Positions 5,798 through 64,000 of a stretch of 64,000 nt of DNA are shown piece by piece. Origin of the DNA: a virus (taxonomy: Duplodnaviria > Heunggongvirae > Uroviricota > Caudoviricetes). Under the pieces are notes generated by a model. It did not search any database. It saw only the letters and a program-made list of their open reading frames with translations, and was not told the origin of the DNA. The position numbers were made by a program, and so were the translations under genes. Positions within the stretch are counted from its first letter, which is position 1, and the number at the start of each line of letters is the position of its first letter. The stretch is taken from IMG/VR virus record IMGVR_UViG_2740892229_000011. One strand, 5' to 3'.

Positions 5798-8211
<2,414 letters not shown>

Positions 8212-10298: not shown

Positions 10299-11617
10299 AA
10301 AAGTTGATCGCACTTAAGCATAAGCTGGACGAAATGAAAGCTATGGGAACCAATGCAAAAAAAGAGGCATTGGCCAACATGGATGACTTCGAGCAAAGCA
10401 TGGTTTCATTGATGCTCAACCCTTTCATCCGTTTTGGGGTAAAGAAATACAAAGTGGTAGAGCCGCTTAGTGAGTCCGTCCCAAGTGACGAAAAAGCCAT
10501 TGATATACTGAATAAGCTGGCCTCTCGCGAGCTGACGGGGAACGCAGCAATAGCTGCTGTTGAGTCTATCGTGGCGTCAATGTGCGCCGATGGGCAGGAC
10601 GTCTTCCGTCGTTTCCTCTTAAAAGATCCGAAAGCTGGCGTTGGGATTAGCCTATGCAACAAGGTTTTTGAAAATCCCATTCCGAAATTCGAGGTGCAGC
10701 TGGCGTCACCGTATAAAGAAAAAGGCGACAAATACCCCTTCAAGCCAAACCCTAAAGCAAAATGGCCGATGATTGGCAGCCTTAAGCTCGATGGTTTGCG
10801 AGTAATTTGCGAGGTTATTGTTGACGAGGAAGAGGTTAACTTCCTTTCTCGTACTGGTAATCCAATCACGTCTCTCGATCACTTAAAGCCAGCCATGCTC
10901 GAATTAGGCAAACTTTCAGGCCACAAACACATCTTCTTCGATGGTGAAGGAACAGCCGGTTCATTTAACCAGTCCGTATCTGCATTGCGCAAAAAGAACG
11001 TGCAGGCAATTGGCGCTATTTATCATGTTTTCGACTTCTTCCTACCGGAATGGCGAGCACAGGCTAAATCCAAAGAGTATGCAAAGACAGGTATGAAGCT
11101 GAAAGAGCGCCTGGCTATGCTGGTGGCGTTGTTCAAAAACGATCGCAGTGAAGGCTACACACAAGACATTCACCTGCATCCGTTCTACATCATCCATAGC
11201 CACGAAGACTTCATCGAACGCTTCATGAAACGCCTGGACGATAACGAAGAAGGGGAGATGGGCAAAGATCCGAACTCTGTTTACGAGTTTAAACGTACCC
11301 GCAGCTGGTGGAAGTTAAAAGACGAAGACTCAGAAGATGGTGAAATTATCGACTTTGAGCCGGGCGACCCGGACTCTGGTTTTGCCAACACGCTTGGAAA
11401 AATTGTTATTCGCCTTGAAAACGGTGTGATTGTTCGTGCGAGCGGCATTAAGCATAAATATCTGGACGAGATCTGGAACAACAAAGAGAAGTACCGTGGT
11501 CGTATTGTCGAGGTTCATTGTCACGAGAAAACGCCGGATGGCAGCTTACGCCACCCACGACTGAAATGGCCGCGTTGCTTACGCGATACCGAAGATCGAA
11601 TCGGAGATAAAGAATGA
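10295..11617 (+). CDS. ATP-dependent DNA ligase
   Basis: Adenylation motif KLDGLR (motif I), EGEMGK (motif IV-like) and WWKLK (motif V). Confidence 0.7.
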   Translation: MKKLIALKHKLDEMKAMGTNAKKEALANMDDFEQSMVSLMLNPFIRFGVKKYKVVEPLSESVPSDEKAIDILNKLASRELTGNAAIAAVESIVASMCADGQDVFRRFLLKDPKAGVGISLCNKVFENPIPKFEVQLASPYKEKGDKYPFKPNPKAKWPMIGSLKLDGLRVICEVIVDEEEVNFLSRTGNPITSLDHLKPAMLELGKLSGHKHIFFDGEGTAGSFNQSVSALRKKNVQAIGAIYHVFDFFLPEWRAQAKSKEYAKTGMKLKERLAMLVALFKNDRSEGYTQDIHLHPFYIIHSHEDFIERFMKRLDDNEEGEMGKDPNSVYEFKRTRSWWKLKDEDSEDGEIIDFEPGDPDSGFANTLGKIVIRLENGVIVRASGIKHKYLDEIWNNKEKYRGRIVEVHCHEKTPDGSLRHPRLKWPRCLRDTEDRIGDKE

Positions 11618-11829
11618 TCGTATTAAGTAAAAGGGAGAAAGAAACGCTTCATGAAATCAGTAAGTGGCCGGAGTTCCCTGAGTACTGGAAGCCTAAAACG
11701 CGAGCTAAGTTAGAGCGTTTAGGGTTGGTTGCAAACGTTTCTGAAACGTGGTGCTCGGCCAACTACCAGTTAACTGATAAAGGGAAAGTATTGCTACAGC
11801 AATTAGTAGAATCAGGAGCGTTAAAATGA
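11614..11829 (+). CDS. hypothetical small protein
   Basis: ATGA start/stop overlap with the ligase gene; SD GGAG. Confidence 0.4.
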   Translation: MIVLSKREKETLHEISKWPEFPEYWKPKTRAKLERLGLVANVSETWCSANYQLTDKGKVLLQQLVESGALK

Positions 11830-11974
11830 TTCCATACATCTCATTAGCTTTTATGGGTGGCTTCCTTATTGGCTTCGGCATCTGTCGTGATTTAATTAAG
11901 CAGGAACTTAAAACCAAAACACTGTGCATCGGAAAGCGTGTGTATCGGGTAGTTCATGAAACAAAGGTTAGAAA

Positions 11975-12265
11975 ATGAGCAATTTAACTTCTTGGGACTG
12001 GTGGTTGGCCACCTATTTCTTAGCGGCCGGAGTCGCATTCGCCTTTTACGTAGGTCAGTTAGTCGTAAAACTGTTGCTGATAAAATTTGCTAGTCATAAA
12101 CGTATCGATGATGGTCTGTGGCGTCTTGGCACTCTGGTGGAAACTCGCTACGGGCAACTTAAGGAGAACGAAACCATTACTATCCAAGCGAAACGGTTCA
12201 CTGCCACCATCACAAGAACACCTAGTCGTAGAGTGGCCTTGATCAAAAAAGTCACAACCGAATAA
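11975..12265 (+). CDS. small membrane protein
   Basis: Hydrophobic N-terminal segment (WWLATYFLAAGVAFAFYVGQLVV). Confidence 0.4.
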   Translation: MSNLTSWDWWLATYFLAAGVAFAFYVGQLVVKLLLIKFASHKRIDDGLWRLGTLVETRYGQLKENETITIQAKRFTATITRTPSRRVALIKKVTTE

Positions 12266-12655
12266 AAACACAATGATAAGTATTTACTTACTTATCTTTT
12301 ATGTATAAGATGACTTTGTTTTCGTTGAGACGCGACTGTTTGAACTTAAATACAAGTGCAAACGAAGAAGTCTATCTGGCAGTAGCCTAATAAGCCAAAC
12401 ACCAGCGAGGTCAGTTTCCAGCCTCGTTACCGAAATGGGACACACTGAGCGAGTGTGATTGCAGAACGCAGGAGGGAACATTCATGTTCCCTCCGATGAA
12501 GTAACAGAATGGGCGGTTGGTATATTTTCAACTCCATATGACTCCCGGATTCTTAGCCACTGACCGCCCATCCTGTTACGTCATTTTGTTCAATTATGTC
12601 GTTTATACTGGGTTAAAAAGCGGCGACGTAGCCCGGCTGGTATGGTTAGCCAGCA

Positions 12656-12777
12656 CACAACGTTGAGGCCATTACATTTTTATCAATTCTAAGGTTCTAT
12701 TCACAGAGATACCGGCGAGCGTTGATATGTAACATGTTGGGCAAACATTCAATCGGAGTAGTGGCCTCAACGTTGTG
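12656..12777 (+). repeat. Long inverted-repeat hairpin element E1 (CACAAC..GTTGTG termini)
   Basis: 16-nt arms cacaacgttgaggcca / tggcctcaacgttgtg enclosing about 90 nt. Confidence 0.5.
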
Positions 12778-13043
12778 AAGACAGGATTGTTGTGTAGGTT
12801 TAACCACTGTTGCCATTGGTGCCTGTTTTCACAACAAATGATTCCATACATCACATTGTATAAATTACAAAGTAGGTGCTGTCCTCAGAAACATCATCTA
12901 CTTAAAGATTTTGCCTTCTACTATTGAGCGAAGTCGAAAGCGTCTGGCACTAACGAAAAGTGCAAGTAGCGGTGCGTTTCCTGGCAGAAACTAAACCGTC
13001 GCGATTGGCACTGTTGAGTAATAAATACTGGCAGTGCTGAATT

Positions 13044-13118
13044 GATGGTGTAGCTCAGCGGTAGAGCAGTTGGCTGTTAACCAACTGGTCGGTGGTTCGA
13101 ATCCACCCACCATCGCCA
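13044..13118 (+). tRNA. tRNA-Asn (anticodon GTT)
   Basis: Cloverleaf read by hand: acceptor gatggtg/caccatc, anticodon loop ctGTTaa, T-loop GGTTCGAATCC, 3' CCA encoded; differs from the recalled E. coli tRNA-Asn. Confidence 0.85.
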
Positions 13119-13123
13119 ATTTA

Positions 13124-13210
13124 GGGGAGTTAGTCCGTAGGGGCAGCGGGGTAGACTGTAAATCTACTGTCATTGCGACTCGGGTGGTTCGACTCCATCA
13201 CTCCCCACCA
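13124..13210 (+). tRNA. tRNA-Tyr (anticodon GTA), type II with long variable arm
   Basis: Acceptor ggggagt/actcccc, anticodon stem gtaga/tctac with loop ctGTAaa, long variable arm, T-loop ttcgact, CCA encoded. Confidence 0.7.
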
Positions 13211-13214
13211 AATT

Positions 13215-13290
13215 GCCGGTTTAGCTCAGTTGGTAGAGCGCCTGCCTTGTAAGCAGGATGTCAGCGGTTCGATCCCGTTAACCGGCACCA
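13215..13290 (+). tRNA. tRNA-Thr (anticodon TGT)
   Basis: Acceptor gccggtt/aaccggc, D-arm tagctcagttggtagagc, anticodon loop ctTGTaa, T-loop ttcgatc, CCA encoded; 4-nt spacer from tRNA-Tyr. Confidence 0.8.
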
Positions 13291-13291
13291 A

Positions 13292-13380
13292 CACAACAGG
13301 TAAGAGCATTGGGCGAATCGGCGATACTGACCCACAAGCCCGTAAATCGATAGAGTCAGACCAGTGCTCTTACCGTTGTG
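13292..13380 (+). repeat. Long inverted-repeat hairpin element E2
   Basis: Arms cacaacaggtaagagca / tgctcttaccgttgtg enclosing about 56 nt, directly after tRNA-Thr. Confidence 0.5.
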
Positions 13381-13426
13381 AGGAAGTGCAGCTCTTTGAA
13401 GCAACCAGAAGATAAGCATCTGGCTT

Positions 13427-13510
13427 CACAACACAACGATAAGATCATTACGGTTAATCGTCGTTCATGTGCACAATGACTGGTCGAAAGGTAGTGATCT
13501 TACCGTTGTG
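13427..13510 (+). repeat. Long inverted-repeat hairpin element E3
   Basis: Arms cacaacgataagatca / tgatcttaccgttgtg; the 3' arm is near-identical to that of E2. Confidence 0.5.
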
Positions 13511-13610
13511 ATGAATGCACAGGCTGATGTGCCGCAACTACAGTAGTGCGCGCTTTGCGGGGCTTGCTACAACCCTGTGTCGGAGTTCAGCACCGACCAT
13601 CACAATAGCT

Positions 13611-13697
13611 GGAGAGTAGGGAGCATGGTGCTCAAGCGGTCTTGAAATCCGTCCCATTGTGCAAACGATGATGGTTCGATTCCATTACTCTCCGCCA
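13611..13697 (+). tRNA. tRNA-like element, type II (possible tRNA-Ser, anticodon TGA) with weak anticodon stem
   Basis: Acceptor ggagagt/actctcc, T-arm gatggTTCGATTccatt, CCA encoded, loop cTTGAaa; the anticodon stem is only 4 bp plus a U-U, so function is uncertain. Confidence 0.4.
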
Positions 13698-13699
13698 GA

Positions 13700-13777
13700 C
13701 ACAGCGTTGAGCGGTTTGGCCTTTTAATCACCCAGATTAAGACTCCGCTAACATAAACCAGACCGCTCAACGCTGTG
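13700..13777 (+). repeat. Long inverted-repeat hairpin element E4
   Basis: Perfect 16-bp arms cacagcgttgagcggt / accgctcaacgctgtg enclosing about 46 nt. Confidence 0.5.
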
Positions 13778-13918
13778 ATAGACAATTACGGCAGACGTTC
13801 TTAACCATAGCTTGCTAACATCCTAGCAACACTTTTTTTCAGCGCAAAATTCAAAGGGGCTTCGGCCCCTTTTTTGCAACTGAAAGAGTCAAGTCTACGA
13901 ACTTTGTAGGAAGAAATA

Positions 13919-14269
13919 ATGACCAGCAAAGAGAACACACCACTAAAAGTCACCCCTGAACACATTGAACAACTCATTCAAAGTGAACATTATTTCACTG
14001 CATATGATGCCAGCCACGGGGATAACTTCATCTCTGTTTACAATTCAAAAACAGATATCGACAAAGGTCATGAGTCGTTAAAACTCTTAACGTTCTGCGT
14101 TATGGTTCTCAAAAATGGATATACCGTAACGGGAAAATCTGCGTGCGTAAGACCAGAAATCTTCAACTTTGATGTTGGTCGCGAGTACGCTCGAAAAGAT
14201 GCTATCGATCAAATCTGGCCACTGGAAGGCTATCTCCTGAAGCAAAAGTGGCATGAGGCAAAGCAATGA
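13919..14269 (+). CDS. hypothetical phage protein (Gp49-like family suspected)
   Basis: 116-aa ORF with SD AGGAAG; motif LTFCVMVLKNGYTVTGKSACV resembles the phage Gp49 family. Confidence 0.4.
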   Translation: MTSKENTPLKVTPEHIEQLIQSEHYFTAYDASHGDNFISVYNSKTDIDKGHESLKLLTFCVMVLKNGYTVTGKSACVRPEIFNFDVGREYARKDAIDQIWPLEGYLLKQKWHEAKQ

Positions 14270-14511
14270 CGATCACTATCTACGGACGAGATAACTGCTC
14301 ATACTGCAAACGTGCAGTCGAGCTGGCGAAGCAACTAAAGGGACATGGCTACGGTGATTATGAGTACATCGACATCACCACTGCCGGTATCGACAAGGAA
14401 AAACTAAGTGAAATTGTTGGTAAACCGGTAGAGACTATCCCCAAGGTGCTGATCGATGGCCAGCCGATTGGCGGATACACAGAACTGGCTGCATACGTCA
14501 GCACCCTCTGA
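14266..14511 (+). CDS. glutaredoxin-like protein (NrdH/T4 NrdC-like)
   Basis: CSYC active-site motif near the N-terminus; 81 aa; followed by a stem-loop plus T-run at 14518-14545. Confidence 0.65.
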   Translation: MTITIYGRDNCSYCKRAVELAKQLKGHGYGDYEYIDITTAGIDKEKLSEIVGKPVETIPKVLIDGQPIGGYTELAAYVSTL

Positions 14512-14675
14512 TTTTAACGGCTCACAGGAGCCGTTTTTATTCCCACCAAACTCACTCCCATTTCCCTTAAAATTCAAAAAACAACGTCAAAATGATTCCA
14601 TACCTACTATGTATGGAATCATTGCTGAAAATGAGTTACTTTTACTCTTGATCCTATAAGAATCTATGCCTAATA

Positions 14676-14695
14676 TACTGTTTACTTATACAGTG
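14676..14695. promoter_or_regulatory. LexA (SOS) box-like palindrome upstream of the recombinase gene
   Basis: TACTGTTTACTTATACAGTG matches CTGT-N8-ACAG with an AT-rich centre; 26 bp upstream of the ATG at 14722. Confidence 0.5.
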
Positions 14696-14721
14696 CATCG
14701 GCGTAACTCGGTGATTGTCAT

Positions 14722-15825
14722 ATGAAAAATAGCTTTGACAGAGCACGCGCTGCGGAGAACACCTCAAAAGAGGCGATAGAGTATCTCGAAAGAGCATCTC
14801 AAATGCAGGCCGTTATGATCTCCCAGGTCAGCAATGACATGAGATTCTCGGACGCATTCATGTTATTCACTCGCTTATCTCTGCTGATAACCAGACGTCG
14901 GCCAGAGATCGCTGTTCATTGTATTTTGATACATGTTTTGCCGCACATTGCCGATGTAAAAGTAAGTGACATTAATAGGTTCATGGTGAACCAACTGGTC
15001 AACCCACTAATACTGGATGGCAAAATTGTTATGGGCCGCCGCGTTTTCTCTCTGATGAAGCAGTTCCTTAGCTGGTGCGCCTTCCAGGGGATGATAGACG
15101 TGTCACCGTTAAACGATATGTCACTTAACAAAGTTGCCGGTGGCGCAAAGCCCACACCTCGCGAGCGGAAGCTGACCGACGCAGAGGTATGGGTGTTCTG
15201 GAATATATGGGACTACTTCAATGTGTGTGCTGGTACAAAATGGGCGGCCAGGCTATGTCTTGTATCCGCAAGACGACCTGACGAAGTACTGCGGGCTAAA
15301 AAAAGTGAGTTCAATCTTAAGCGTGGGGTTTGGAATCAAGGCAAGAGGAACAAATCTGCCCGTGAGCATTCTCTGCCTTTAAGCTCATTAATGCGCACTT
15401 GTATTGAAGAGTTGTTCGAATATGGTAAAGACAGCCAGTGGCTCGTGCCTTCGAATAAAAAAATCGGGAAAGACCTTCCTATGTCTAAAGTGGCAATAGC
15501 CCAGGCATTACGTCGTATTCTGGAACGACCAGAACTGATGGAGCTTGAGCCATTTACACCCCGAGATTTGCGCCGTACTGCGCGTAGTTACTTCCCAGCA
15601 TTAGGCATAAGCCAGGAGGTATCACGTAAAATCATGAACCACAGTCTTGAGGGGATAGATCGGGTCTACGACCGGCACGATTATATGGACGAGATGCGAG
15701 ACGCCTTAGAAAGTTTCTCGACGTACATCGCATCAATCGTAGAGCAACCGGATTTAGACGAAATTGACCACAAATTTAAGGGAGATCGTCTATCAACAGA
15801 GCTTATTCGTGTAAATTTTTCATAG
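14722..15825 (+). CDS. tyrosine site-specific recombinase / integrase (P4-like family)
   Basis: C-terminal catalytic region FTPRDLRRTARSYF ... KIMNHS ... RVYDRHDY (R, RxxR, H and Y positions of tyrosine recombinases; the usual H of the HxxR box is R here). Confidence 0.7.
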   Translation: MKNSFDRARAAENTSKEAIEYLERASQMQAVMISQVSNDMRFSDAFMLFTRLSLLITRRRPEIAVHCILIHVLPHIADVKVSDINRFMVNQLVNPLILDGKIVMGRRVFSLMKQFLSWCAFQGMIDVSPLNDMSLNKVAGGAKPTPRERKLTDAEVWVFWNIWDYFNVCAGTKWAARLCLVSARRPDEVLRAKKSEFNLKRGVWNQGKRNKSAREHSLPLSSLMRTCIEELFEYGKDSQWLVPSNKKIGKDLPMSKVAIAQALRRILERPELMELEPFTPRDLRRTARSYFPALGISQEVSRKIMNHSLEGIDRVYDRHDYMDEMRDALESFSTYIASIVEQPDLDEIDHKFKGDRLSTELIRVNFS

Positions 15826-16206
15826 AGACTTTATGGCCTCAACAACCTTTTGTGATGCGCCTTTCTCTTTACCGAATCGCTCGTTATATGCAGCAAGAAC
15901 CTGTTTTTCGTCCTCGTTAAGAGGAGCAGTGCCTTCTTTGTATAAAAATGCTGCGAGTTCGGGTTGGCGTTCTTCCAGCACCATCATCATAAGACGACTT
16001 GGCTCAATACCCAGTGCCAGCGCCAGCGGACGAACCTTATCGATAGGCAAAGGAATTTTGCCGCTTTTAATTAAAGAAAGGTTGTTGGCGTTTTTATACC
16101 CAATTGTTTTGGCTATCTGGGCCTGGCTCATAGGTGAGGATTCAATCAACCCTGCGATAAAAGCAGCGTAGCGACTTTCTATAAATTCAATCTTGTTATC
16201 AGACAT
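15820..16206 (-). CDS. XRE-family HTH transcriptional regulator (repressor-like)
   Basis: Helix-turn-helix MSQAQIAKTIGYKNANNLSLIKSGK; divergent from downstream genes, with a 250-bp intergenic region. Confidence 0.55.
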   Translation of the reverse strand: MSDNKIEFIESRYAAFIAGLIESSPMSQAQIAKTIGYKNANNLSLIKSGKIPLPIDKVRPLALALGIEPSRLMMMVLEERQPELAAFLYKEGTAPLNEDEKQVLAAYNERFGKEKGASQKVVEAIKSL

Positions 16207-16457
16207 GGTTACAACCTTTGCGCGTTCAATTCTCTCTGGTAAGTGCTTACCGATATTACATCAAAGGTTAGGGTTGTAAAGCTATTATCATTTTTTTCGA
16301 TAGGCACTTAAAAGACCGGTTAAAGGCCATTGCACGGAGAAAAATTAGCCCAAAACAGGTAAGAAAATCAACTTGCATATGATATGAATGTATTCAGTAT
16401 TGATACAAATTTTAGTAGTATTCCTTACCATAGTATAAGTTAGAATGGATTGATTGA

Positions 16458-16670
16458 ATGAACACCACTATTTCCAGCCTAATCGCTCTTGAGATCGGAC
16501 ACGTACAGAAATTAGCTGATGAGTGTGTAGCTGACATCCTCACCGATCTACCGAATGAGCAGATTCAGGTTGGTGTGAATGACACAACTGGATTTATATT
16601 CGAACTTAACAACAAACGCTTCACGCTTCTCAATACCGGCTCCGGGTCTTTAGCCGTCAGAATCTGTTAA
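16458..16670 (+). CDS. hypothetical small protein
   Basis: 70-aa ORF divergent from the XRE regulator; followed by a 9-bp-stem palindrome. Confidence 0.3.
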   Translation: MNTTISSLIALEIGHVQKLADECVADILTDLPNEQIQVGVNDTTGFIFELNNKRFTLLNTGSGSLAVRIC

Positions 16671-16768
16671 CCCCTCTTCTCCCTGCGCGAATGGCTTAGT
16701 TCCCTGTTCGCGCAGTGCTACATTAAACACACTAGTAAATAATTTGTTTTCATAACAAAGGATTAGCC

Positions 16769-18877
16769 ATGTCTAAAAAACGTTCCATCAAAGAGGTTCA
16801 GGACTTCCGTGACAGTGTAAAACGAGTAGTCGCTCTCCTTTCAGGTAAAAACATCCCTGTTGCAGAACGAGGGGACGACGCTTATGTATGCTATAACGAT
16901 GATGGAGAGCCAATTCTCGTAAACATCCCATCAATCCCGGATAACGCAACACCGGCATTGATGAATGCTGTGCGCGGATTTCTCGATCATGAGGTTGCTC
17001 ACATTTTGTTTACCGATATTCGTGTGTCCAACAAAATGAGAGAAAAAGGACGCGTTCCTTCCTGGTCGCTATGGAATGCCTTAGAAGACGTGTTCATCGA
17101 GCGAAAAATGGGTCAGGTCTTTAACGGAACAAGACGTAATCTGATGGCAACTCAGCGCCTTATAATCGAAAAAGTCTTTAAACCAAAGGCTTCAGAGGCT
17201 ATTGCTTATTGTGGCAAAGATCAGCGCGCGCTTTTTCTAAACTTCTTTCTCTGTCCGGTTGTAAGAGCCTGGGATGGCCAAGCACCGTTCGTAGATTTCA
17301 TGGATGAATATTGGCCTGTCATTGAGAAACCAATTTCATTATTAAAAGAACATGGTATCGATGTGGCCGTGCGTAACATGTCTTGCACCGAGGATTGTGT
17401 AAAGGTGGCTGCGACCATAGCTAAGATCCTCAAAGACACTGAAAGTGAAAGCAAAGGTAAGGAGTCAGCTCCGGGAAAAACTTCCGATCCTTCAGACGCT
17501 GAACAGACGGATGCCTCTGGAGAAAACAATGAAGATAACGAAGATCATGAGACACCCTCAGCGTTAGATAATCACAAATCTATCAAATCAGAATCACACA
17601 GTAAGCACAAACATGATAATAACGACGGTGATGATTCAGATAATTCTGAATCATCAGAAACAATATTCGATGATACAGAAAATGATAAAGAGGTATCAGA
17701 TTCTGATGCTTCTGATAACGCGGTGTCAGAATCATTTACCGCTGACCACGAAAAAAGAAAAACGACAGAAGACGGCTCTTCAGATATCCCAACTCCGTCA
17801 AAAATGAGTCTGGAAGAGGCTTTAGAGGAGCTGGATAGCATAGAAGATGAAGTCGGAGGCATGACAGAAGATGCTCTATCCGAAACGATTAAAAGCGAGT
17901 TAACAGAAAGCTCGAAAAGCGAATACAGGCCATACAATCGCTCATACGACTTCATCGGCTCGATTGATCAGGCAGAAGCCCATATCAAACGGCTTATTAA
18001 AACATTCTCCGATATTGATTTAGGAGGATATCCAATCAGCCGCTATCGCATCGTTCCTGAAGGCAACCAGCTCTTCGACAAATATATTGAAAAGCATCTT
18101 TCGTCAGGTGTTTCGTCGACGCTGGCAAAAGACCTGGAGCGAGCAATAGCAAGCAGAAACAGAGTTCAGTTTATACCGGGCCAGCGTCGGGGGCGCATTC
18201 ATGGTTCTAGTATCTACAGATTAGCAATGAATGATGATCGCGTGTTTCGTAAAAAAGAAGAATCTAAAGCCGTTAACGCCTGTGTTCAACAAGTGATTGA
18301 TTTATCAGGTTCAATGAGTGGTATAACGATACAATTGGCTCTTGCAAGTGCATATACCATCGCCGATGCCCTTGATCGAATAAATGTTCCCAACATTATC
18401 ACCGGCTTCACTACATTTGGTAGTCATATGGCGGCAGGAGAACTTAAGGCTGTCAAGTATGAGTTCTCTCGCTTTGAATCTTTAATGCTACCTATCATCA
18501 AAAATTGGAATGAAAAGGTAAATTCTCGCGAAGTTCGCTCACGTATGGGGTGCGTAGGCTACACATTCCCACTTCTTAATAACGTGGATGGTGAAAGCAT
18601 AGCCAGCCTTGCATCGTTATTTTCCGGTCGCATGGAGGACAGGAAGATCATGCTTGTTCTGAGTGATGGCGCGCCGTGGGCTGTTGGGAGAGGTTTTGAC
18701 GCTCATTTGCGTTCGGTTGCGAAGCAAATTGAAACGCAGACTGACATTGATTTGATGGCAATTGGCATCATGACTGACGCACCGGAGAGATTTTACTCAA
18801 ATCATGCCCTGGTAACGAGCGTTGATAGTCTTGGTTCATCTGTAGTTACTGAACTATCTCGTATCATTTTGAAGTGA
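16769..18877 (+). CDS. CobT-like protein: N-terminal HExxH region, acidic linker, C-terminal vWA domain
   Basis: HEVAH motif; long D/E/S-rich central stretch; vWA MIDAS motif DLSGSMSG and VLSDGAPW; conserved TIR. Confidence 0.6.
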   Translation: MSKKRSIKEVQDFRDSVKRVVALLSGKNIPVAERGDDAYVCYNDDGEPILVNIPSIPDNATPALMNAVRGFLDHEVAHILFTDIRVSNKMREKGRVPSWSLWNALEDVFIERKMGQVFNGTRRNLMATQRLIIEKVFKPKASEAIAYCGKDQRALFLNFFLCPVVRAWDGQAPFVDFMDEYWPVIEKPISLLKEHGIDVAVRNMSCTEDCVKVAATIAKILKDTESESKGKESAPGKTSDPSDAEQTDASGENNEDNEDHETPSALDNHKSIKSESHSKHKHDNNDGDDSDNSESSETIFDDTENDKEVSDSDASDNAVSESFTADHEKRKTTEDGSSDIPTPSKMSLEEALEELDSIEDEVGGMTEDALSETIKSELTESSKSEYRPYNRSYDFIGSIDQAEAHIKRLIKTFSDIDLGGYPISRYRIVPEGNQLFDKYIEKHLSSGVSSTLAKDLERAIASRNRVQFIPGQRRGRIHGSSIYRLAMNDDRVFRKKEESKAVNACVQQVIDLSGSMSGITIQLALASAYTIADALDRINVPNIITGFTTFGSHMAAGELKAVKYEFSRFESLMLPIIKNWNEKVNSREVRSRMGCVGYTFPLLNNVDGESIASLASLFSGRMEDRKIMLVLSDGAPWAVGRGFDAHLRSVAKQIETQTDIDLMAIGIMTDAPERFYSNHALVTSVDSLGSSVVTELSRIILK

Positions 18878-18972
18878 ATAAAACAGCCTTAATGATAAGT
18901 AACCACTTACGATAGTTAATGGTATATTTATATAAGAAGTTGAACGCTCATTAGAGAACAAAGGAAAAACGC

Positions 18973-20208
18973 ATGACGACTACTGCACTGCAAAATGAAA
19001 AAAATCATTCTGATTACCTTGTTTGCAAGTGGTGCGGCAAATCATTTCACTATTTTAAGTCCCATGTAGCCAATGGTAATTGCGAGGGCATTCCTGAGTC
19101 AGTAAAAGATGCCGATCCTGACACCGTACTGAAAATGTACACAACGCAGTTTCCAGATGAGCCAACGCTATCGAAAAAGGCACTTGATGCAATTCAAGCT
19201 AAACGTGCCGAGCAAAAAAGCGAAATGGCCAAATCTTCTGGCTTGACCAGTAGCCCTGGCTACACAGGCACAGTTGAGTACAAGACAGATCTGGTCGCAG
19301 CTCACGAACTGCTAAACGTAACGGTGGAAGAACTCGGAACAAAACGTGGGACGCCGCTCATGGTTAGCGTCAACGTCAATACGCCGTATCCAGAGTTCGT
19401 TCCAGAAGTGAAGAAGGGCTACGTATATGGCGACTTCGAACTGATCAAAGATATTTTCATGATGCTTGAACTTGGCATACCTGGCTATTTGTGGGGTCAT
19501 GCAGGAACAGGCAAATCGTCATTGCCTACACAGCTATGTGCTTTGCTCAATCGTCCGTTGATCCGTGCCCAACATACAGCATCAATGGAAGAGGCACATG
19601 TTACGGGGCAAATTCTGGCGCGTGATGGCTCTACGTATTTCGAGCCTGGCTTGCTTGCGCTCGCAATGAAGCATGGCTGGGTTTACCTCGCGGATGAATA
19701 CGACTTTGCGTTTCCACAGATTCTTGGCGTGTATCAGCCAGTGCTGGAAGGTGAAGCGTTGGTCATCAAAGAGGCGACTCCAGAATGGCGTCGCATTACT
19801 CCGCATGAACGGTTTGCTTTCATTGGCACTGGCAACACGAACGGATCTGGTGATGAAACCGGCTTGTACCAGGGTACAAACATCCAGAACGCCGCGAACT
19901 TTTCGCGTTTTGGCATCGTTTCGAATGTGAAATACATGAGCAAAGAGGCAGAGATCAACATGTTGATAAATGCCGGTATCGTGGGTGAATACGCAGAAAA
20001 GATGGTTAAGTTTGCCGGTATCGTTCGCGATGGATACGAAGAACACCTTATCAGTCAGCCAATTGGCCCTCGTGAACTTTTGTTGTCGGCCAAGATTGGA
20101 ATGATGCGAGGCGACTTTGTGACAGGTATTGAGCGTTCTTTCATTAACAAACTCCCTTCAGCTTCTGCACAAGCGGCTCGTGAAGTTGTTCAAAAAATAT
20201 TTGGTTGA
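18973..20208 (+). CDS. CobS/MoxR-like AAA+ ATPase with N-terminal Cys-rich extension
   Basis: Walker A GHAGTGKSS, Walker B VYLADEYD; N-terminal CKWCGKSFHYFKSHVANGNC zinc-ribbon-like motif. Confidence 0.65.
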   Translation: MTTTALQNEKNHSDYLVCKWCGKSFHYFKSHVANGNCEGIPESVKDADPDTVLKMYTTQFPDEPTLSKKALDAIQAKRAEQKSEMAKSSGLTSSPGYTGTVEYKTDLVAAHELLNVTVEELGTKRGTPLMVSVNVNTPYPEFVPEVKKGYVYGDFELIKDIFMMLELGIPGYLWGHAGTGKSSLPTQLCALLNRPLIRAQHTASMEEAHVTGQILARDGSTYFEPGLLALAMKHGWVYLADEYDFAFPQILGVYQPVLEGEALVIKEATPEWRRITPHERFAFIGTGNTNGSGDETGLYQGTNIQNAANFSRFGIVSNVKYMSKEAEINMLINAGIVGEYAEKMVKFAGIVRDGYEEHLISQPIGPRELLLSAKIGMMRGDFVTGIERSFINKLPSASAQAAREVVQKIFG

Positions 20209-20388
20209 TCGTGCGTAAAGGATGTTTCGGCTCTCTTATCGCTGCTTCTGAAACTGGTAAGGCTTGTCTGGTGTGTCCAGACAAGCCTGATTGTCACCAA
20301 TCAGCAAAAGAAGTTGCGATTTCGATGCATGGGAAGTTCGTAGGCTTCCCAAATGACAAAATCAAAAAAACCAGAAAGGTAAAAACAC

Positions 20389-23300
20389 ATGAAGGCACTG
20401 ATGGTTCGAACTGACTTCTCACTTGGGGAGTCGGCTTTAAAAGCAGAAAACGCGGTGAAGATTGCCAGAGAAGCTGGCTACACCGCTGTAATTTCAGCAG
20501 ATAGCATGAATATTGCGAGTGTTATTCCACTACAACGTGCCGCTGGTGACGACATGGCGGTTATTTGTGGTGTGAAACTAAATATCGTTGATGATCCCAC
20601 ATACGAGCACCGGGCTAAACTTGCTAAAGAATCTAAGGGATGTATGGAATCATTAGAGCGAGGACGTAACTACTCGTTTACCGCTCTAATTAAAAATGAG
20701 AAAGGATATCGCGACATCTGCGAACTAATGACGGCGGCCAACACACGAGAACAGTTCTACTTTGTACCGCGTCTCTCGCTCGAACAGTTGGTTTCTACAT
20801 ATGCCAAAGGCAACATCATCCTGCTTACTTCCGACATCGGTAGCGTGTTCCAACGCAACGATTTTGCAAAAATCATAAGCACACTGATTACAGCGGGTGG
20901 AAAAGACAACTTCTATAGTGTGGTTTATCCGCACCCTACCCCATTCTACGACCAGATTAACGTCCGGGCGATGAAAGTCGCCAGCGCATTGAAAATAGAG
21001 CCAGTGGCGTTCTATCCCGCTTATTACGAATCGATCGACGATGCAGACATTAAAGACATTGCGCACATGGTTACGAACAACATCAAAATCGACCAGCCGC
21101 ATCGTCTGCGTATCCCCCACCAGCGAGATAACGCCGTCAATGGTCGCCGCCATCTCCTTGAGGCGCTTAAAGCCTTCTCCGTTCGCATGGATGTGCCGGT
21201 AACAGCTGCAATGGCCTCAACAACGCAGGATACCATTATCGATGCCTGCACATGGCGCTGGCATGAATTGCCGCCAGCACTGCCAAAGATGGCAGACGAC
21301 GAGCCTGCAACGCTTATGAAACTGGCTGTTGCAGGGCTGCGTAAACGTCTTACCACAAAAGAGTTTGGCTACACACCACCTGCTTCTGAGAACAGGGTTT
21401 ATGTTGAGCGGCTAAAGTACGAAATGGACACGCTGACTCGCCTGGGATTTTGTGGTTACTTCCTGATGGTACGCGATCTGATGAATCACAGCCGTGAAAC
21501 TGGCATTCCTGTCGGGCCTGGTCGTGGTTCCTCCGCTGGCTCTTTGGTGGCATGGTGCATAGGCATAACCAACGTCGACCCTATCCGTCACGGTCTTCTG
21601 TTTGAACGTTTCATCAACCCTGAGCGTCTCGACTTGCCAGATGCGGATTTGGACTTCAGCCAGGCACGTCGCCATGAGGTGATCGAGTATCTGAATGAAC
21701 GATACGGCGAAGATTACGTTGCGGGTATTCCGAACTTCACATATCTGGGCGCAGCCTCTGCACTACGTGACACCGCTCGTATTTATGGTGTGGAGTCCGC
21801 AGATATGGCGGTATCAAAAGAGCTGAGGAACGTCGAGGATGATAGCCTTCCATTGGAAGAGCTGCGCGAACAACTGGCAAGTCTCGACAAATACGCGACA
21901 AAATACCCTGATGCATTCAATGCTGCCTGCAAGTTACAAAGTCTTATGCGTGGCTTTGGTAGACATGCGGCAGGGATGATCGTAGCAGGTGTTCCTCTGA
22001 CAGAACGTACACCGGTTGAACGCCGTGGTGACGCGCGTTGTATCGCATTTGACAAGCGTTACTGCGAGGCTATGGGCCTAATTAAGCTGGACGTACTTGG
22101 TCTGGCAACTCTCGATTTGCTCGATAGTGCAAAACGCTACATAAAAGAGAACACAGGTGAAGATATCAATCTTGATGCCATTTCTCTTGAAGATCGCAAG
22201 GTGCTGGATGGTTTTGCTGCTGGGTACACTCAAGGTGTTTTCCAGCTTGAATCAGGCCCAATGCGCAAGCTGCTTAAAGATTTAGGTGGTGGAATTGAGC
22301 CAATGAGCTTTAAAACGGTCGTTGCTACGACTGCGCTCTTCCGGCCGGGGCCAATTCAGTCAGGCATGTTGGATGATTATGTTTCTGTCGCCAAAGGCTT
22401 TATGACGCCGGAATCATTACACCCCGTTCTTGATGAACTTACCGCAGAAACAAATGGCGTGATTCTCTATCAGGAACAGACGATGAACGCGACTCGATTG
22501 CTTGCCGGCTTCACAATGGCTGAAGCTGACGGTGTTCGTAAAGCGATCGGCAAAAAAGACATGGAGAAAATGAAGAGCATGGGTGAGAAGTTCATCGTTC
22601 AGGCTCAAGCTGGCTGGATCGACGTTGAGCTGGAAGATGGCACTACACAGCGCATTCACCGTGCGGAACATTTTAAATGCGAAGACGGAACTCTGAAAAC
22701 TGTCGAAGAGGCACTTGAGTTCGGTGCAAAACTACCTATAAACGCAGTACGCGTTACAGCGTCACATCCAGGGCTATCAGAGATGAAAGCGAAGGAGATC
22801 TGGACCGCATTCGAAAAGAATGGTGCCTACCAGTTCAACAAATCACACTCTGTTGCTTACTCCTTAATCAGTTATCAATCTATGTGGTTGAAAACTCATT
22901 ATCCCGCAGAGTTTTTCGCTGCTGCTCTCACTATTCTTGGCGAAGATAAACACCAGGGGCTGGTTAAAGATGCGCTGACCTATGGTATTCGCGTATTGCC
23001 ACCAGACGTTAACGTGTCATCTAACCGAATCGAGATCCGCACGCTTGAAGATGGCAGCCAGGTGCTGTATGCGCCCTTCTCTGCTGTGAAGGGGTGTTCT
23101 GAGAATGGCTGCCAGGCCATCATGAGAGCGCGAGAAAAGGTTGGCGGCAAATTCGAGTCACTTGCGCAATTCGAAGAAGCTGTCGAGAAACGTGCCTGTA
23201 ATAGTCGAGTGCGCGAATCGCTGCAAAAAGTAGGGGCGTTTGCATCCATCGAGCCAGGTAGTCTGCCAGCAACTGATCCAGAGCGCCTCCGCGACCAGGC

Positions 23301-49600: not shown

Positions 49601-49657
49601 AGCCTGCTTCTGTATATAAATAACTACATATTAATTATTAATATACGGAAGCAGGCT
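49601..49657 (+). terminator. Stem-loop B, near-identical to stem-loop A
   Basis: Arms agcctgcttctgtatat / atatacggaagcaggct; the single mismatch is a G-U wobble in the plus-strand RNA; 22 nt after the MTase stop. Confidence 0.45.
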
Positions 49658-61673: not shown

Positions 61674-61693
61674 TACTGTATGCATATACAGTA
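61674..61693. promoter_or_regulatory. LexA (SOS) box
   Basis: TACTGTATGCATATACAGTA, a near-perfect match to the consensus TACTGT-N8-ACAGTA; 16 bp upstream of the UmuD'-like ATG. Confidence 0.7.
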
Positions 61694-62136: not shown

Positions 62137-63237
62137 TCACACTGCGCGGAATGCGATTTCGCCAGGTATTACTTCACCTTGCCAATACATTTGGGCAGCA
62201 ACGCGATCTGCGAGGTCACGATAAATAGCCGTAAATTCGCTATCTGGACGACTAATAACGGTTGGTGTTCCGTTATCCAGATCTTCACGAAGAGAGATAT
62301 GAAGTGGCATTTGGCCTAACAACTGCGTGTTGTATTTCTCGGCCAGTTTCTGTGCGCCACCGGTGCCAAAAATTGGCTCGTGATGACCGCAGTTACTGCA
62401 AATATGCACACTCATGTTTTCGACGATACCTAGTACCGGCACTTCGACTTTTTCGAACATCACAATGCCTTTCTTCGCATCGATCAGCGCGATGTCTTGC
62501 GGCGTAGTTACCACAACCGCACCAGTTACAGGAATGTTCTGCGCCAGCGTCAACTGAATATCACCAGTGCCCGGCGGCATATCGAGAACGAGATAGTCCA
62601 GATCAGGCCATAGAGTTTCCTGCAACATCTGCATCAGCGCCTTGCTGGCCATCGGTCCACGCCACACCATTGCATTGTCGTCGGTGACCAGATAACCAAT
62701 AGAGTTGGTTGCCAGGCCATGAGACATGATAGGTGCCATGTGAGTACCGTCAGGTGAGGTTGGACGTTGGTTTTCCGCGCCCAGCATGGTTGGAATTGAT
62801 GGACCATAGATATCGGCATCCAAAATACCAACTTTCGCACCTTCAGCAGCCAAAGCCAGTGCCAAGTTTACTGCTGTGGACGATTTGCCTACACCGCCCT
62901 TGCCTGAGCTTACGGCGATAATATTCTTAACACCATTAATGCCTGGTTGGTTTTTGACGCGCTTAAGCGTGGCAATGTTGTACGACAGCTTCCAGTCAAT
63001 AGCCTTTGCGCCAGTGATACGGAGCAGATCACCACTACATTGCTCTTTCAGGTCTTCAAAAGGCTTATTCCACACGAAAGGCATGATTAGTTCGACATGC
63101 AGTGTGTCATCCATCAACGCAACATGGTGTAACGCTTTAAGCGTAGTCAGGTTGTGTTTCAGGGTTGGGTGCTGAAAATTAGCCAGCGTACCGGCTACCA
63201 TTGCTCTCAGGGCATCCGGCGATTTGGACTCGCTCAT
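62137..63237 (-). CDS. mrp: Fe-S cluster carrier ATPase Mrp/ApbC
   Basis: Full-length near-identity to recalled E. coli Mrp (P-loop GKGGVGKSST, CSNCGH motif). Confidence 0.95.
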   Translation of the reverse strand: MSESKSPDALRAMVAGTLANFQHPTLKHNLTTLKALHHVALMDDTLHVELIMPFVWNKPFEDLKEQCSGDLLRITGAKAIDWKLSYNIATLKRVKNQPGINGVKNIIAVSSGKGGVGKSSTAVNLALALAAEGAKVGILDADIYGPSIPTMLGAENQRPTSPDGTHMAPIMSHGLATNSIGYLVTDDNAMVWRGPMASKALMQMLQETLWPDLDYLVLDMPPGTGDIQLTLAQNIPVTGAVVVTTPQDIALIDAKKGIVMFEKVEVPVLGIVENMSVHICSNCGHHEPIFGTGGAQKLAEKYNTQLLGQMPLHISLREDLDNGTPTVISRPDSEFTAIYRDLADRVAAQMYWQGEVIPGEIAFRAV

Positions 63238-63394
63238 CCCGTCTCCTTTATTTTAATTTGCGCAATTGTCGCCTTGTAGTGTACTCCAGCTGCGACATTT
63301 AATCATTTATGAGAAATGCTGTTATCACATGGCAGACATAAGGCCATTTTGTTACTATCAAGCCCCTTTTCACTACAAAGAAGTAATGCCTACT

Positions 63395-64000
63395 ATGACC
63401 CAAGTCGCGAAGAAAATTCTGGTGACGTGCGCGCTGCCGTACGCTAACGGCTCAATCCACCTCGGCCATATGCTGGAGCACATCCAGGCTGATGTCTGGG
63501 TTCGTTACCAGCGAATGCGCGGCCACGAGGTTAATTTCATCTGTGCCGACGATGCCCACGGTACGCCGATCATGCTGAAAGCACAGCAACTTGGTATCAC
63601 ACCGGAGCAGATGATTGGCGAAATGAGTCAGGAACACCAGACTGATTTCGCAGGCTTTAACATCAGCTATGACAACTATCACTCGACGCACAGCGAAGAG
63701 AACCGTCAGTTGTCTGAGCTTATCTATACTCGCCTGAAAGAGAACGGTTTTATTAAAAATCGCACTATCTCTCAGTTGTACGACCCGGAAAAAGGCATGT
63801 TCCTGCCGGATCGTTTTGTGAAAGGCACCTGCCCGAAATGTAAAGCGCCAGATCAATACGGCGATAACTGTGAAGTTTGCGGCGCGACCTACAGCCCGAC
63901 TGAACTGATCGAGCCGAAATCGGTGGTTTCTGGTGCTACCCCGGTAATGCGTGATTCTGAACACTTCTTCTTTGATCTGCCCTCTTTCAGCGAAATGTTG
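63395..64000 (+). CDS. metG: Methionyl-tRNA synthetase, 5' portion (continues beyond window)
   Basis: [35 protein letters not shown]..., HIGH-type motif and zinc knuckle CPKC...CEVC; no stop before the window end. Confidence 0.95.

Follow-up and report, generated by a model that had tools for sequence, protein, structure and literature searches.

The stretch of DNA analyzed here, referred to as the window, is 64,000 nucleotides of the Caudoviricetes record IMGVR_UViG_2740892229_000011 from IMG/VR. The locus under study encodes a tyrosine recombinase, Int. Upstream of the int gene are a perfect inverted repeat, a putative promoter, and a palindrome of the LexA (SOS) box type, and downstream is a convergent gene for a helix-turn-helix (HTH) regulator. 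The positions of these features are collected in Table 1 together with those of a second LexA box and of three solitary copies of one repeat arm found elsewhere in the window.

Table 1. Features of the int locus and related elements in the window. ORF, open reading frame; HI, heterology index.
Feature	Position	Strand	Remarks
Solitary half-site AATGATTCCATACATC, same as one arm of the inverted repeat	11825-11840	+	Overlaps the start codon of a 50-aa ORF
Solitary half-site AATGATTCCATACATC	12837-12852	+	Intergenic, upstream of the tRNA cluster
Terminator-like hairpin (14516-14535) and T-run	14516-14543	+	Follows the glutaredoxin gene
Perfect 13-7-13 inverted repeat AATGATTCCATAC-CTACTAT-GTATGGAATCATT	14591-14623		Candidate core site of the recombinase
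Putative sigma-70 promoter, TTGATC (14648-14653), 17-nt spacer, TAATAT (14671-14676)	14648-14676	+	Read from the sequence
LexA (SOS) box TACTGTTTACTTATACAGTG	14676-14695		Overlaps the final base of the -10 hexamer and the expected transcription start
Tyrosine recombinase (int), 367 aa	14722-15825	+
HTH regulator, 128 aa	15820-16206	-	Counterpart of the 'putative repressor' CYRAN_45; convergent with int, 6-nt overlap with its 3' end
Solitary half-site	20639-20654	-	Inside the 5' part of a dnaE-like gene
Second strong LexA box TACTGTATGCATATACAGTA	61674-61693		Near-consensus, HI 2.9, 16 nt before humD; internal positive control
HumD-family (UmuD'-like) gene, 129 aa	61710-62099	+	NCBIfam NF051876, 219.8 bits, equivalog level

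Judged by its sequence relationships, the window is an SSU5/pSLy3-type E. coli phage-plasmid. Positions 14400-16300 are 99.9% identical to ~110-kb non-mobilizable E. coli plasmids such as pRHB36-C16_2 (CP057127.1), and the locus region is 98% identical to that of Escherichia phage Cyrano, the SSU5-like phage-plasmid of E. coli LF82. The locus matches 612 plasmid records in PLSDB (Klebsiella, Escherichia, Yersinia pMT1, Shigella, Salmonella, and others), most of them ~105-120 kb. The annotation of the complete 110-kb plasmid used as the reference lists phage structural genes, ParA/ParB, DNA replication genes, and plasmid-borne metG/apbC. The gene content and the PLSDB and Cyrano matches therefore bear out the label of phage-plasmid given to this DNA in a preliminary description made from the sequence alone. 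SSU5 itself was absent among the phage records that encode a homologue of the recombinase, and a close homologue was found in only nine phage records.

The terminator-like hairpin that closes the glutaredoxin gene means that int needs its own promoter. The TTGATC and TAATAT hexamers and their spacing are conserved in relatives. The LexA box starts at the final T of the predicted TAATAT hexamer and covers the expected start site, which is the usual geometry of a repressing LexA operator. The CTGT-N8-ACAG core of the box lies at 14678-14693, and exactly 26 nt (14696-14721) separate the box from the recombinase ATG at 14722. These coordinates confirm the placement of a palindrome 26 bp before a tyrosine recombinase gene in the preliminary description.

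The strength of the box was evaluated against the consensus and by its heterology index (HI), the measure that the preliminary description had named as a check. The 20-mer TACTGTTTACTTATACAGTG departs from the consensus TACTGT(AT)4ACAGTA at four positions, none within CTGT or ACAG, and the CTG-N10-CAG pattern is present. The bare CTGT-N8-ACAG pattern occurs three times in the window compared to 0.88 expected, and at least three copies were found in 6 of 100 shuffles, so this count is not significant. The HI was calculated with the formula of Lewis et al. 1994 using a matrix rebuilt from 29 E. coli LexA operators, and its values are approximate. The int box has an approximate HI of 4.2 on its better strand, which is inside the range of the 29 operators (0.95-9.8; recA 4.9, sulA 4.2, lexA 5.0). 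The third CTGT-N8-ACAG copy, at 7223, is inside an ORF and has an HI of 15.5. The only other site in the window with an HI below 12 is the box before humD, and the int and humD boxes are the only sites below 9 in the complete 110-kb reference plasmid. In 20 shuffles of the window, no site reached an HI of 6 or less. The full 20-mer is significant, unlike the bare pattern. The gene behind the second box is of the same family as humD of phage P1. It serves solely as a comparator, showing that the element recruits LexA elsewhere.

The locus was gathered from 75 viral or genomic contigs and from further relatives to follow the box through the family. A close clade has recombinases that are 79-100% identical and comes from E. 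coli, Shigella, Klebsiella, Yersinia pestis pMT1, Kluyvera, Citrobacter, and Buttiauxella. The intergenic DNA of this clade is just ~65-75% identical, yet a LexA-type palindrome keeps the same spacing from the upstream inverted repeat, 62-65 nt counted from where its right arm starts. There are 18 distinct box variants in the clade with approximate HI values of 0.35-9.6. All 18 have CTG at positions 3-5 and CAG at positions 16-18, there is no variation at positions 9, 13, and 14 either, and positions 10-12 each have three different bases among the variants. In the Citrobacter-type box TACTGGTTATTCATCCAGTA (HI 4.3), both half-sites are changed symmetrically to CTGG...CCAG, likewise a canonical form for LexA. 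A relative from Serratia quinivorans, with only 60% identity in the protein and with unrelated flanks, has the box TACTGTATATAAATACAGTT (HI 1.1) abutting TTGACG-17-TAACAT. This promoter has the same geometry with respect to the box and is called by the promoter scanner. Including Serratia, there are 19 versions of the box over a recombinase identity range of 60-100%, and CTG and CAG are unchanged in all of them. These sequence comparisons indicate that the box is kept by selection and that LexA control is clade-restricted yet actively maintained. The same clade-wise pattern of retention and loss of a LexA box is reported for integron integrases (Cambray et al. 2011, PMC3108266). In one relative (L072), a replacement has removed the N terminus of int along with the box and the repeat, and this degenerate variant is uninformative.

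Published RNA sequencing (RNA-seq) of every Cyrano gene is available for LB, for cell-culture medium at 1 h and 6 h, and for macrophages at 1 h and 6 h (Misson et al., PMC9928086, S1 Table). According to these authors, the environment within macrophages exposes LF82 to genotoxic stress and induces its SOS response. The log2 expression of int (CYRAN_44) in their table is 5.63 in LB, 7.94 (1 h) and 6.07 (6 h) in medium, and 8.89 (1 h) and 10.30 (6 h) in macrophages. From these values, int is up by 4.2 log2 units (~19-fold) in macrophages at 6 h compared to medium at 6 h. This increase ranks 8 among the 123 Cyrano genes, whose median is +0.93. The second gene with a strong box, humD (CYRAN_98), is up by 3.1 log2 units in the same comparison, and the chromosomal SOS genes dinI (+4.3), umuD (+4.8), umuC (+3.0), and sulA (+2.6) also rise in macrophages in these data. 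Basal expression of int in LB is ~5-fold above the background of the element (49.5 compared to a median of 9.8), and repression is therefore leaky. Cyrano virions are induced by ciprofloxacin, and the plasmid is present at ~5.5 copies per cell (PMC9928086). The RNA-seq data agree with SOS control of int but do not prove it.

The idea that the palindrome is a chance or otherwise-used sequence, and that LexA does not regulate int, draws on the abundance of the bare CTGT-N8-ACAG pattern, which alone is not rare. It does not explain the full-length score, the position in the promoter, the contact bases kept in 19 variants, or the independent flank context in Serratia, and the Cyrano expression data agree with a functional LexA site. 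We consider a chance palindrome extremely unlikely. Because of the score, position, phylogenetic footprint, and published expression data, we infer that LexA binds this predicted operator, and control of the recombinase gene by host LexA is highly probable, being well supported but not proven.

The 367-aa ORF matches the Pfam family Phage_integrase (PF00589) with an E value of 2.9e-10, and its match to Phage_int_M is weak. The homologues form a compact family of ~110 clusters. Nearly all of the carriers are 100-120-kb phage-plasmid-like contigs or large plasmid-like contigs of Pantoea, Rahnella, and Erwinia. The catalytic residues R185, K211, R284, H307, and Y316 are conserved, and the His-II position is occupied by R281. 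Box II reads RDLRRT (PRDLRRT) in 20 of 20 aligned family members that range from 43 to 100% identity, and an outgroup with an arm domain has HDLRRT where the His is present. The preliminary description was right that an Arg replaces the usual His of the HxxR box, but this is a family-wide trait and is not peculiar to the gene. Type IB topoisomerases have a basic residue at the His-II position, and His-II mutants of Cre retain partial activity.

The preliminary description had also called the recombinase P4-like. The P4-type (CP4-57-like) integrases are its best sequence relatives outside the family (25-34% identity), and they share the ...DLRRT... and ...YDRHDY... motifs. They differ from the recombinase family, which has no PF13356 domain and has Arg in place of His-II. 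The PF13356/DUF4102 arm-binding domain is absent from every family member and present in the outgroup (P0114-P0120, 25-34% identity). The score against the P4-type NCBIfam model NF007246 (PRK09692) is 33.9 bits compared to a cut-off of 434. The term P4-like is thus accurate in a loose sense only. P4-type-like tRNA attB sites or integrated copies were not seen in the contigs read, a survey that did not include a systematic chromosome search.

A phmmer search of PDB with the recombinase gave no match at E ≤ 1, and AlphaFold and Foldseek were used for this reason. The AlphaFold model has a predicted local distance difference test score (pLDDT) of 85 and a predicted template modeling score (pTM) of 0.77. 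Residues 1-60 are helical in the model, and there is no beta-sheet arm-binding domain. The best Foldseek matches were residues 75-356 of lambda Int, which are the core-binding and catalytic domains, Tn1549 Int, and XerH, all with a probability of 1.00. IntI was matched but ranked below lambda Int, and Cre was weaker still. The enzyme is best described as a simple two-domain, arm-less tyrosine recombinase that differs from a typical P4 integrase. No other site-specific recombinase is annotated on the reference plasmid.

The 13-7-13 inverted repeat is located 25 bp upstream of the -35 hexamer. Close relatives have identical 13-bp arms and a 7-bp spacer that differs (CTACTAT, CTATTAA, TTGTAAG, TCCTTAG, CTATAAA, TTATATA, and others). 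Distant relatives also have a 13-7-13 repeat upstream of the gene, with the same two substitutions in both arms, TGACTCCAGAC in place of TGATTCCATAC, and the arms of the Photorhabdus repeat are an intermediate form. All of the relatives examined have a repeat ahead of the gene, and the changes in its arms follow the recombinase clade. The repeat and the gene are also found together on the non-phage plasmid backgrounds of Pantoea (CP028350.1, 508 kb), Rahnella, and Erwinia, where the HTH and CobT neighbors are missing. Since the repeat is kept without the HTH neighbor, it belongs to the recombinase and not to the neighboring regulator. An operator for the HTH protein was rejected on the same observation, and the palindromes upstream of the HTH gene have a different sequence (GGTAAG..CTTACC). 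A known RNA family was also considered. The strand folds well (-11.9 kcal/mol, z -8.35), but an Rfam scan of 11000-21500 detected tRNAs only and gave no match at the inverted repeat. The reference plasmid has one full site. A 13-7-13 repeat beside a simple recombinase is the anatomy of systems such as Cre/loxP and FLP/FRT, and the repeat is the candidate crossover site.

The possibility that the enzyme is a true integrase, that SOS induction couples DNA damage to chromosomal integration or excision, and that the repeat is attP was weighed against these data. The protein is a member of the tyrosine recombinase/integrase superfamily, lambda Int is its best structural match, it has distant kinship to the P4-type integrases, and some of the carrier contigs are 0.2-0.9 Mb. 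However, the PLSDB matches place the locus on plasmids, most of them in the narrow size range given above. The gene neighbors within 10 kb are identical in 16 of 16 contigs that encode the Citrobacter-type protein, including the three largest, and therefore there is no junction at the repeat. A search for integrated copies among the largest carrier contigs gave only plasmid-sized places with identical neighborhoods. The recombinase lacks the arm-binding domain, neither the HTH protein nor the adjacent 70-aa ORF gives an excisionase-like match, and a symmetric 13-7-13 site with arm-type sites absent nearby is typical of simple recombinases. These points make chromosomal integration very improbable. 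The excision role in the preliminary description is unsupported, since all copies seen have the same neighbors and are carried by plasmid-sized or plasmid-like replicons. Multimer resolution, the other role proposed there, or cyclization is favored, in either case at the adjacent 13-7-13 repeat.

The sequence AATGATTCCATACATC is one arm extended by ATC, and solitary exact copies occur only within ~9 kb of the recombinase gene in the 110 kb examined. Their orientation mirrors the two arms, with the plus-strand copies to the left of the full site and the minus-strand copy to the right. Half-sites are at the same syntenic positions in Cyrano and in a Citrobacter relative. Copies in the contig L088 are at 2580, 3619, 10607, and 16151. 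Several clades have a further half-site inside int itself, and the distant relatives have the full site only, within 3 kb. The half-sites are possibly accessory binding sites, regulatory sites, or relics of secondary-site recombination.

This distribution raises the question of whether the recombinase-fold protein is chiefly a DNA-binding regulator that is activated by SOS and acts at the palindrome and the half-sites on the expression of adjacent genes, like SroF/YopR/MrpR of the SPbeta-type phages. Exact 15-16-nt half-sites are confined to the 9 kb around the gene, where they sit at a start codon, before the tRNAs, in dnaE, and in int in other clades, and they are at the same syntenic places in the Citrobacter relative. 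Integrase-fold repressors do exist, and they appear among the weaker structural matches. However, all of the catalytic residues including Tyr316 are kept across the family down to 43% identity, which argues for catalysis. The distant relatives manage with the full site only within 3 kb, and the SroF/YopR matches have E values of ~6e-3 to 1e-2 compared to 2e-7 for lambda Int. A protein that is chiefly a regulator is thus quite improbable.

The DNA between the terminator at 13855-13876 and the inverted repeat (13855-14590) is a cargo hotspot and the most variable part of the locus. It contains a gp49-like gene and the glutaredoxin gene in the window and CYRAN_43 in Cyrano, which is expressed at ~700x background. 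Other relatives have a YafO toxin pair, PhoH, Ail/Lom, colicin, or ParE/Phd genes at this location. The site next to the recombinase gene could in principle be a cargo-exchange platform at which the SOS-induced recombinase captures or swaps accessory genes in the manner of an integron. The variation is highest directly to the left of the repeat, homology resumes 0-18 bp from the arm, the half-site orientation mirrors the two arms, and LexA control is a hallmark of integron integrases. Insertions bounded by half-sites were rejected by the structure of the variable block: its left boundary recurs at the terminator and not at a half-site, and the insertions in Cyrano and in a second relative (L011) do not have a half-site at the far end. 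For these reasons, ordinary moron mosaicism explains the pattern better than integron-like capture. No cassette array was apparent in the variable DNA examined, nor were attC-like elements or IntI-specific features recognized, although no search was aimed at attC sites or at the IntI-specific insertion. Integron-like exchange is accordingly a highly unlikely function of the site.

The resemblance to integrons lies in regulation and layout. The promoter of the integron IntI tyrosine recombinase has an E. coli-type LexA box, as here, the box is selected across many elements and lost in some lineages, and the primary recombination site is just upstream of the gene beside variable cargo (Guerin et al. 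2009; Cambray et al. 2011, PMC3108266). In contrast, the protein encoded in the window is not an IntI, its structural match to IntI ranks below that to lambda Int, and its candidate site is a symmetric double-stranded 13-7-13 repeat.

A functional parallel is the Cre/loxP system of P1. P1 is likewise a phage-plasmid, it too has just one simple tyrosine recombinase and just one site with 13-bp inverted repeats, near the recombinase gene, and the role proposed here is the same as that of Cre, multimer resolution and cyclization of incoming DNA. The two systems differ in several ways. There is no detectable sequence relationship between the recombinases (10-12% identity, Foldseek E ~6e-3), and the spacer is 7 bp here compared to 8 bp in loxP. 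To our knowledge, cre is not LexA-controlled. The LexA site in P1 is at the promoter of the coi antirepressor gene, whereas here it is at the recombinase promoter.

These comparisons are combined in the following mechanism. The recombinase gene would be transcribed from its own sigma-70 promoter (Pint), TTGATC-17-TAATAT. Host LexA would occupy the 20-bp SOS box from the last base of the -10 hexamer, and expression in undamaged cells would be low and leaky. Following DNA damage, activated RecA (RecA*) would trigger LexA self-cleavage, and the recombinase gene would be derepressed together with the humD gene of the element. The two-domain recombinase would then most likely act on the perfect 13-7-13 repeat upstream of the promoter. 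We infer a role in plasmid multimer resolution, and possibly in circularization of incoming phage DNA, as is the case for Cre at loxP in P1. SOS control would raise the capacity for resolution at a time when RecA-driven recombination and induced replication make multimers. The best reading of the analysis is that the recombinase is a Cre/loxP-like resolution or cyclization module that was put under SOS control by one clade. A LexA-repressed Pint driving an arm-less recombinase that acts at the 13-7-13 repeat is the best explanation overall and is probably correct, and the chances that the function exerted at the adjacent repeat is plasmid multimer resolution or cyclization are about even.

Several observations weigh against this explanation. 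About half of the family is without the box (Nissabacter, K. grimontii-type, Xenorhabdus, Photorhabdus, Providencia, Pantoea, Rahnella, and Erwinia, with 43-62% identity), and it is therefore not needed for the basic role of the enzyme. The promoter hexamers match 8 of 12 consensus positions and fall below the threshold of the promoter scanner, so the promoter is a prediction. The HI values are approximate. In the Cyrano data, CYRAN_46, HicAB, CYRAN_60/61, and some late genes rise as much as int without a strong box, and the increase in int could therefore be part of a partial lytic induction. The SOS-inducible expression put forward in the preliminary description has in its favor a high-scoring predicted operator in promoter position, selection on the box, and SOS-like RNA-seq in Cyrano, but the rise of genes without a box counts against it. 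A simple loxP-like model does not account for the three or four solitary half-sites, and a natural recombinant with its junction in the repeat was not found. Finally, resolvases are usually constitutive or autoregulated, and the benefit of SOS control is argued only.

The HTH neighbor offers another route by which Pint could matter. The convergent arrangement of int and the HTH gene, either abutting or overlapping, is conserved in all phage-plasmid relatives. The HTH protein has a weak HTH_19 match and no S24 peptidase domain. GGTAAG...CTTACC palindromes at 16235-16433, such as GGTAAGTGCTTACC at 16238-16251, are located between the HTH gene and a divergent, conserved 70-aa ORF, and they are likely the operators of the repressor itself. 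The HTH gene has a promoter-like site at 16280-16253. The Cyrano orthologue of the 70-aa ORF is up by 4.7 log2 units in macrophages. A plus-strand terminator-like hairpin at 16046-16062 is antisense to the HTH gene, ~220 nt past the int stop codon. If transcription ends there, the int mRNA would run antisense to the repressor gene over its 3' two-thirds.

Pint could then be mainly a sensor of DNA damage, in which SOS transcription running antisense into the gene for a non-cleavable repressor reduces the expression of this gene through collision or antisense RNA and thereby leads to lytic growth. This idea is compatible with the recombinase role. DNA damage induces the element, as ciprofloxacin does with Cyrano, although no S24 peptidase domain is present in the HTH protein, the 'putative repressor' that Cyrano lysogens express. 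The 110 kb contain no strong LexA box besides those of int and humD, and the latter does not drive a regulator. The convergent gene order is maintained throughout the phage-plasmid relatives, and CYRAN_46, the early gene divergent from the repressor, is up by 4.7 log2 units together with int. P1 and N15 couple SOS to induction through LexA-controlled antirepressors. However, the repressor mRNA also rises (+2.4 log2 in the same condition) instead of falling, relatives without the box retain the convergent arrangement, and the terminator-like hairpin is not conserved in the Citrobacter or Serratia relatives. The assignment of the HTH protein as the master repressor is itself putative. Taken together, a primary role as a damage sensor is unlikely.

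The LexA-controlled induction modules P1 coi, N15 antC, and GIL01 are the precedents for such a connection. In each, an extrachromosomal prophage makes direct use of host LexA, its own repressor not being cleavable in response to RecA, as would be the case here. They differ from the int locus in that the LexA-controlled gene here encodes a recombinase and not a recognizable antirepressor, and the link to induction is hypothetical. An extended version of the idea is that Pint is the only direct SOS input to the lysis-lysogeny decision in SSU5/pSLy3-type elements. Either the transcript (convergent or antisense) or the protein (at the palindrome and the half-sites) would inactivate the repressor, and the recombinase gene would double as the induction trigger. 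We regard this proposal, too, as doubtful.

Three other features of the element were recorded. A cluster of four tRNA genes (Asn, Tyr, Thr, and Ser; 13044-13697) is upstream of the recombinase locus, and the number of tRNA genes differs among relatives, Cyrano having three. A ~55-bp palindromic element with the form CCTGCTTC(C/T)GTATATA...TATATACAGAAGCAGG is present in two copies at 1560-1610 and 49603-49655. On the reference plasmid, both copies share an identical ~55-bp stretch, and they are intergenic and 1-2 kb from the genes annotated as ParA/ParB in Cyrano. These elements may be centromere-like or packaging sites; LexA boxes were ruled out by the spacing. The host-like genes apbC (mrp) and metG at 62137-63964 are on the phage-plasmid itself, and this region is not a chromosome junction because the reference plasmid is annotated with the same arrangement.

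SOS control of a site-specific recombinase is already known from integrons. In the literature searched, we found no earlier description of LexA control on SSU5-type phage-plasmids, and none of DNA-damage sensing or of the role of the single recombinase in SSU5/pSLy3/pKpn/pMT1-type elements. The recombinase and its 33-bp site are a candidate for a new simple recombination tool, with natural specificity variants in the TGATTCCATAC and TGACTCCAGAC arms. Experiments would be most worthwhile on the half-sites and on the possible role in induction. Phage-plasmids of the SSU5/pSLy3/pKpn/pMT1 type are very common in clinical and animal Enterobacteriaceae and are able to carry resistance genes. Should LexA indeed control the recombinase, antibiotics that induce SOS, quinolones and trimethoprim among them, would have a direct effect on recombination in these elements. 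This could influence resolution, the stability of the copy state, and possibly cargo rearrangement and induction.

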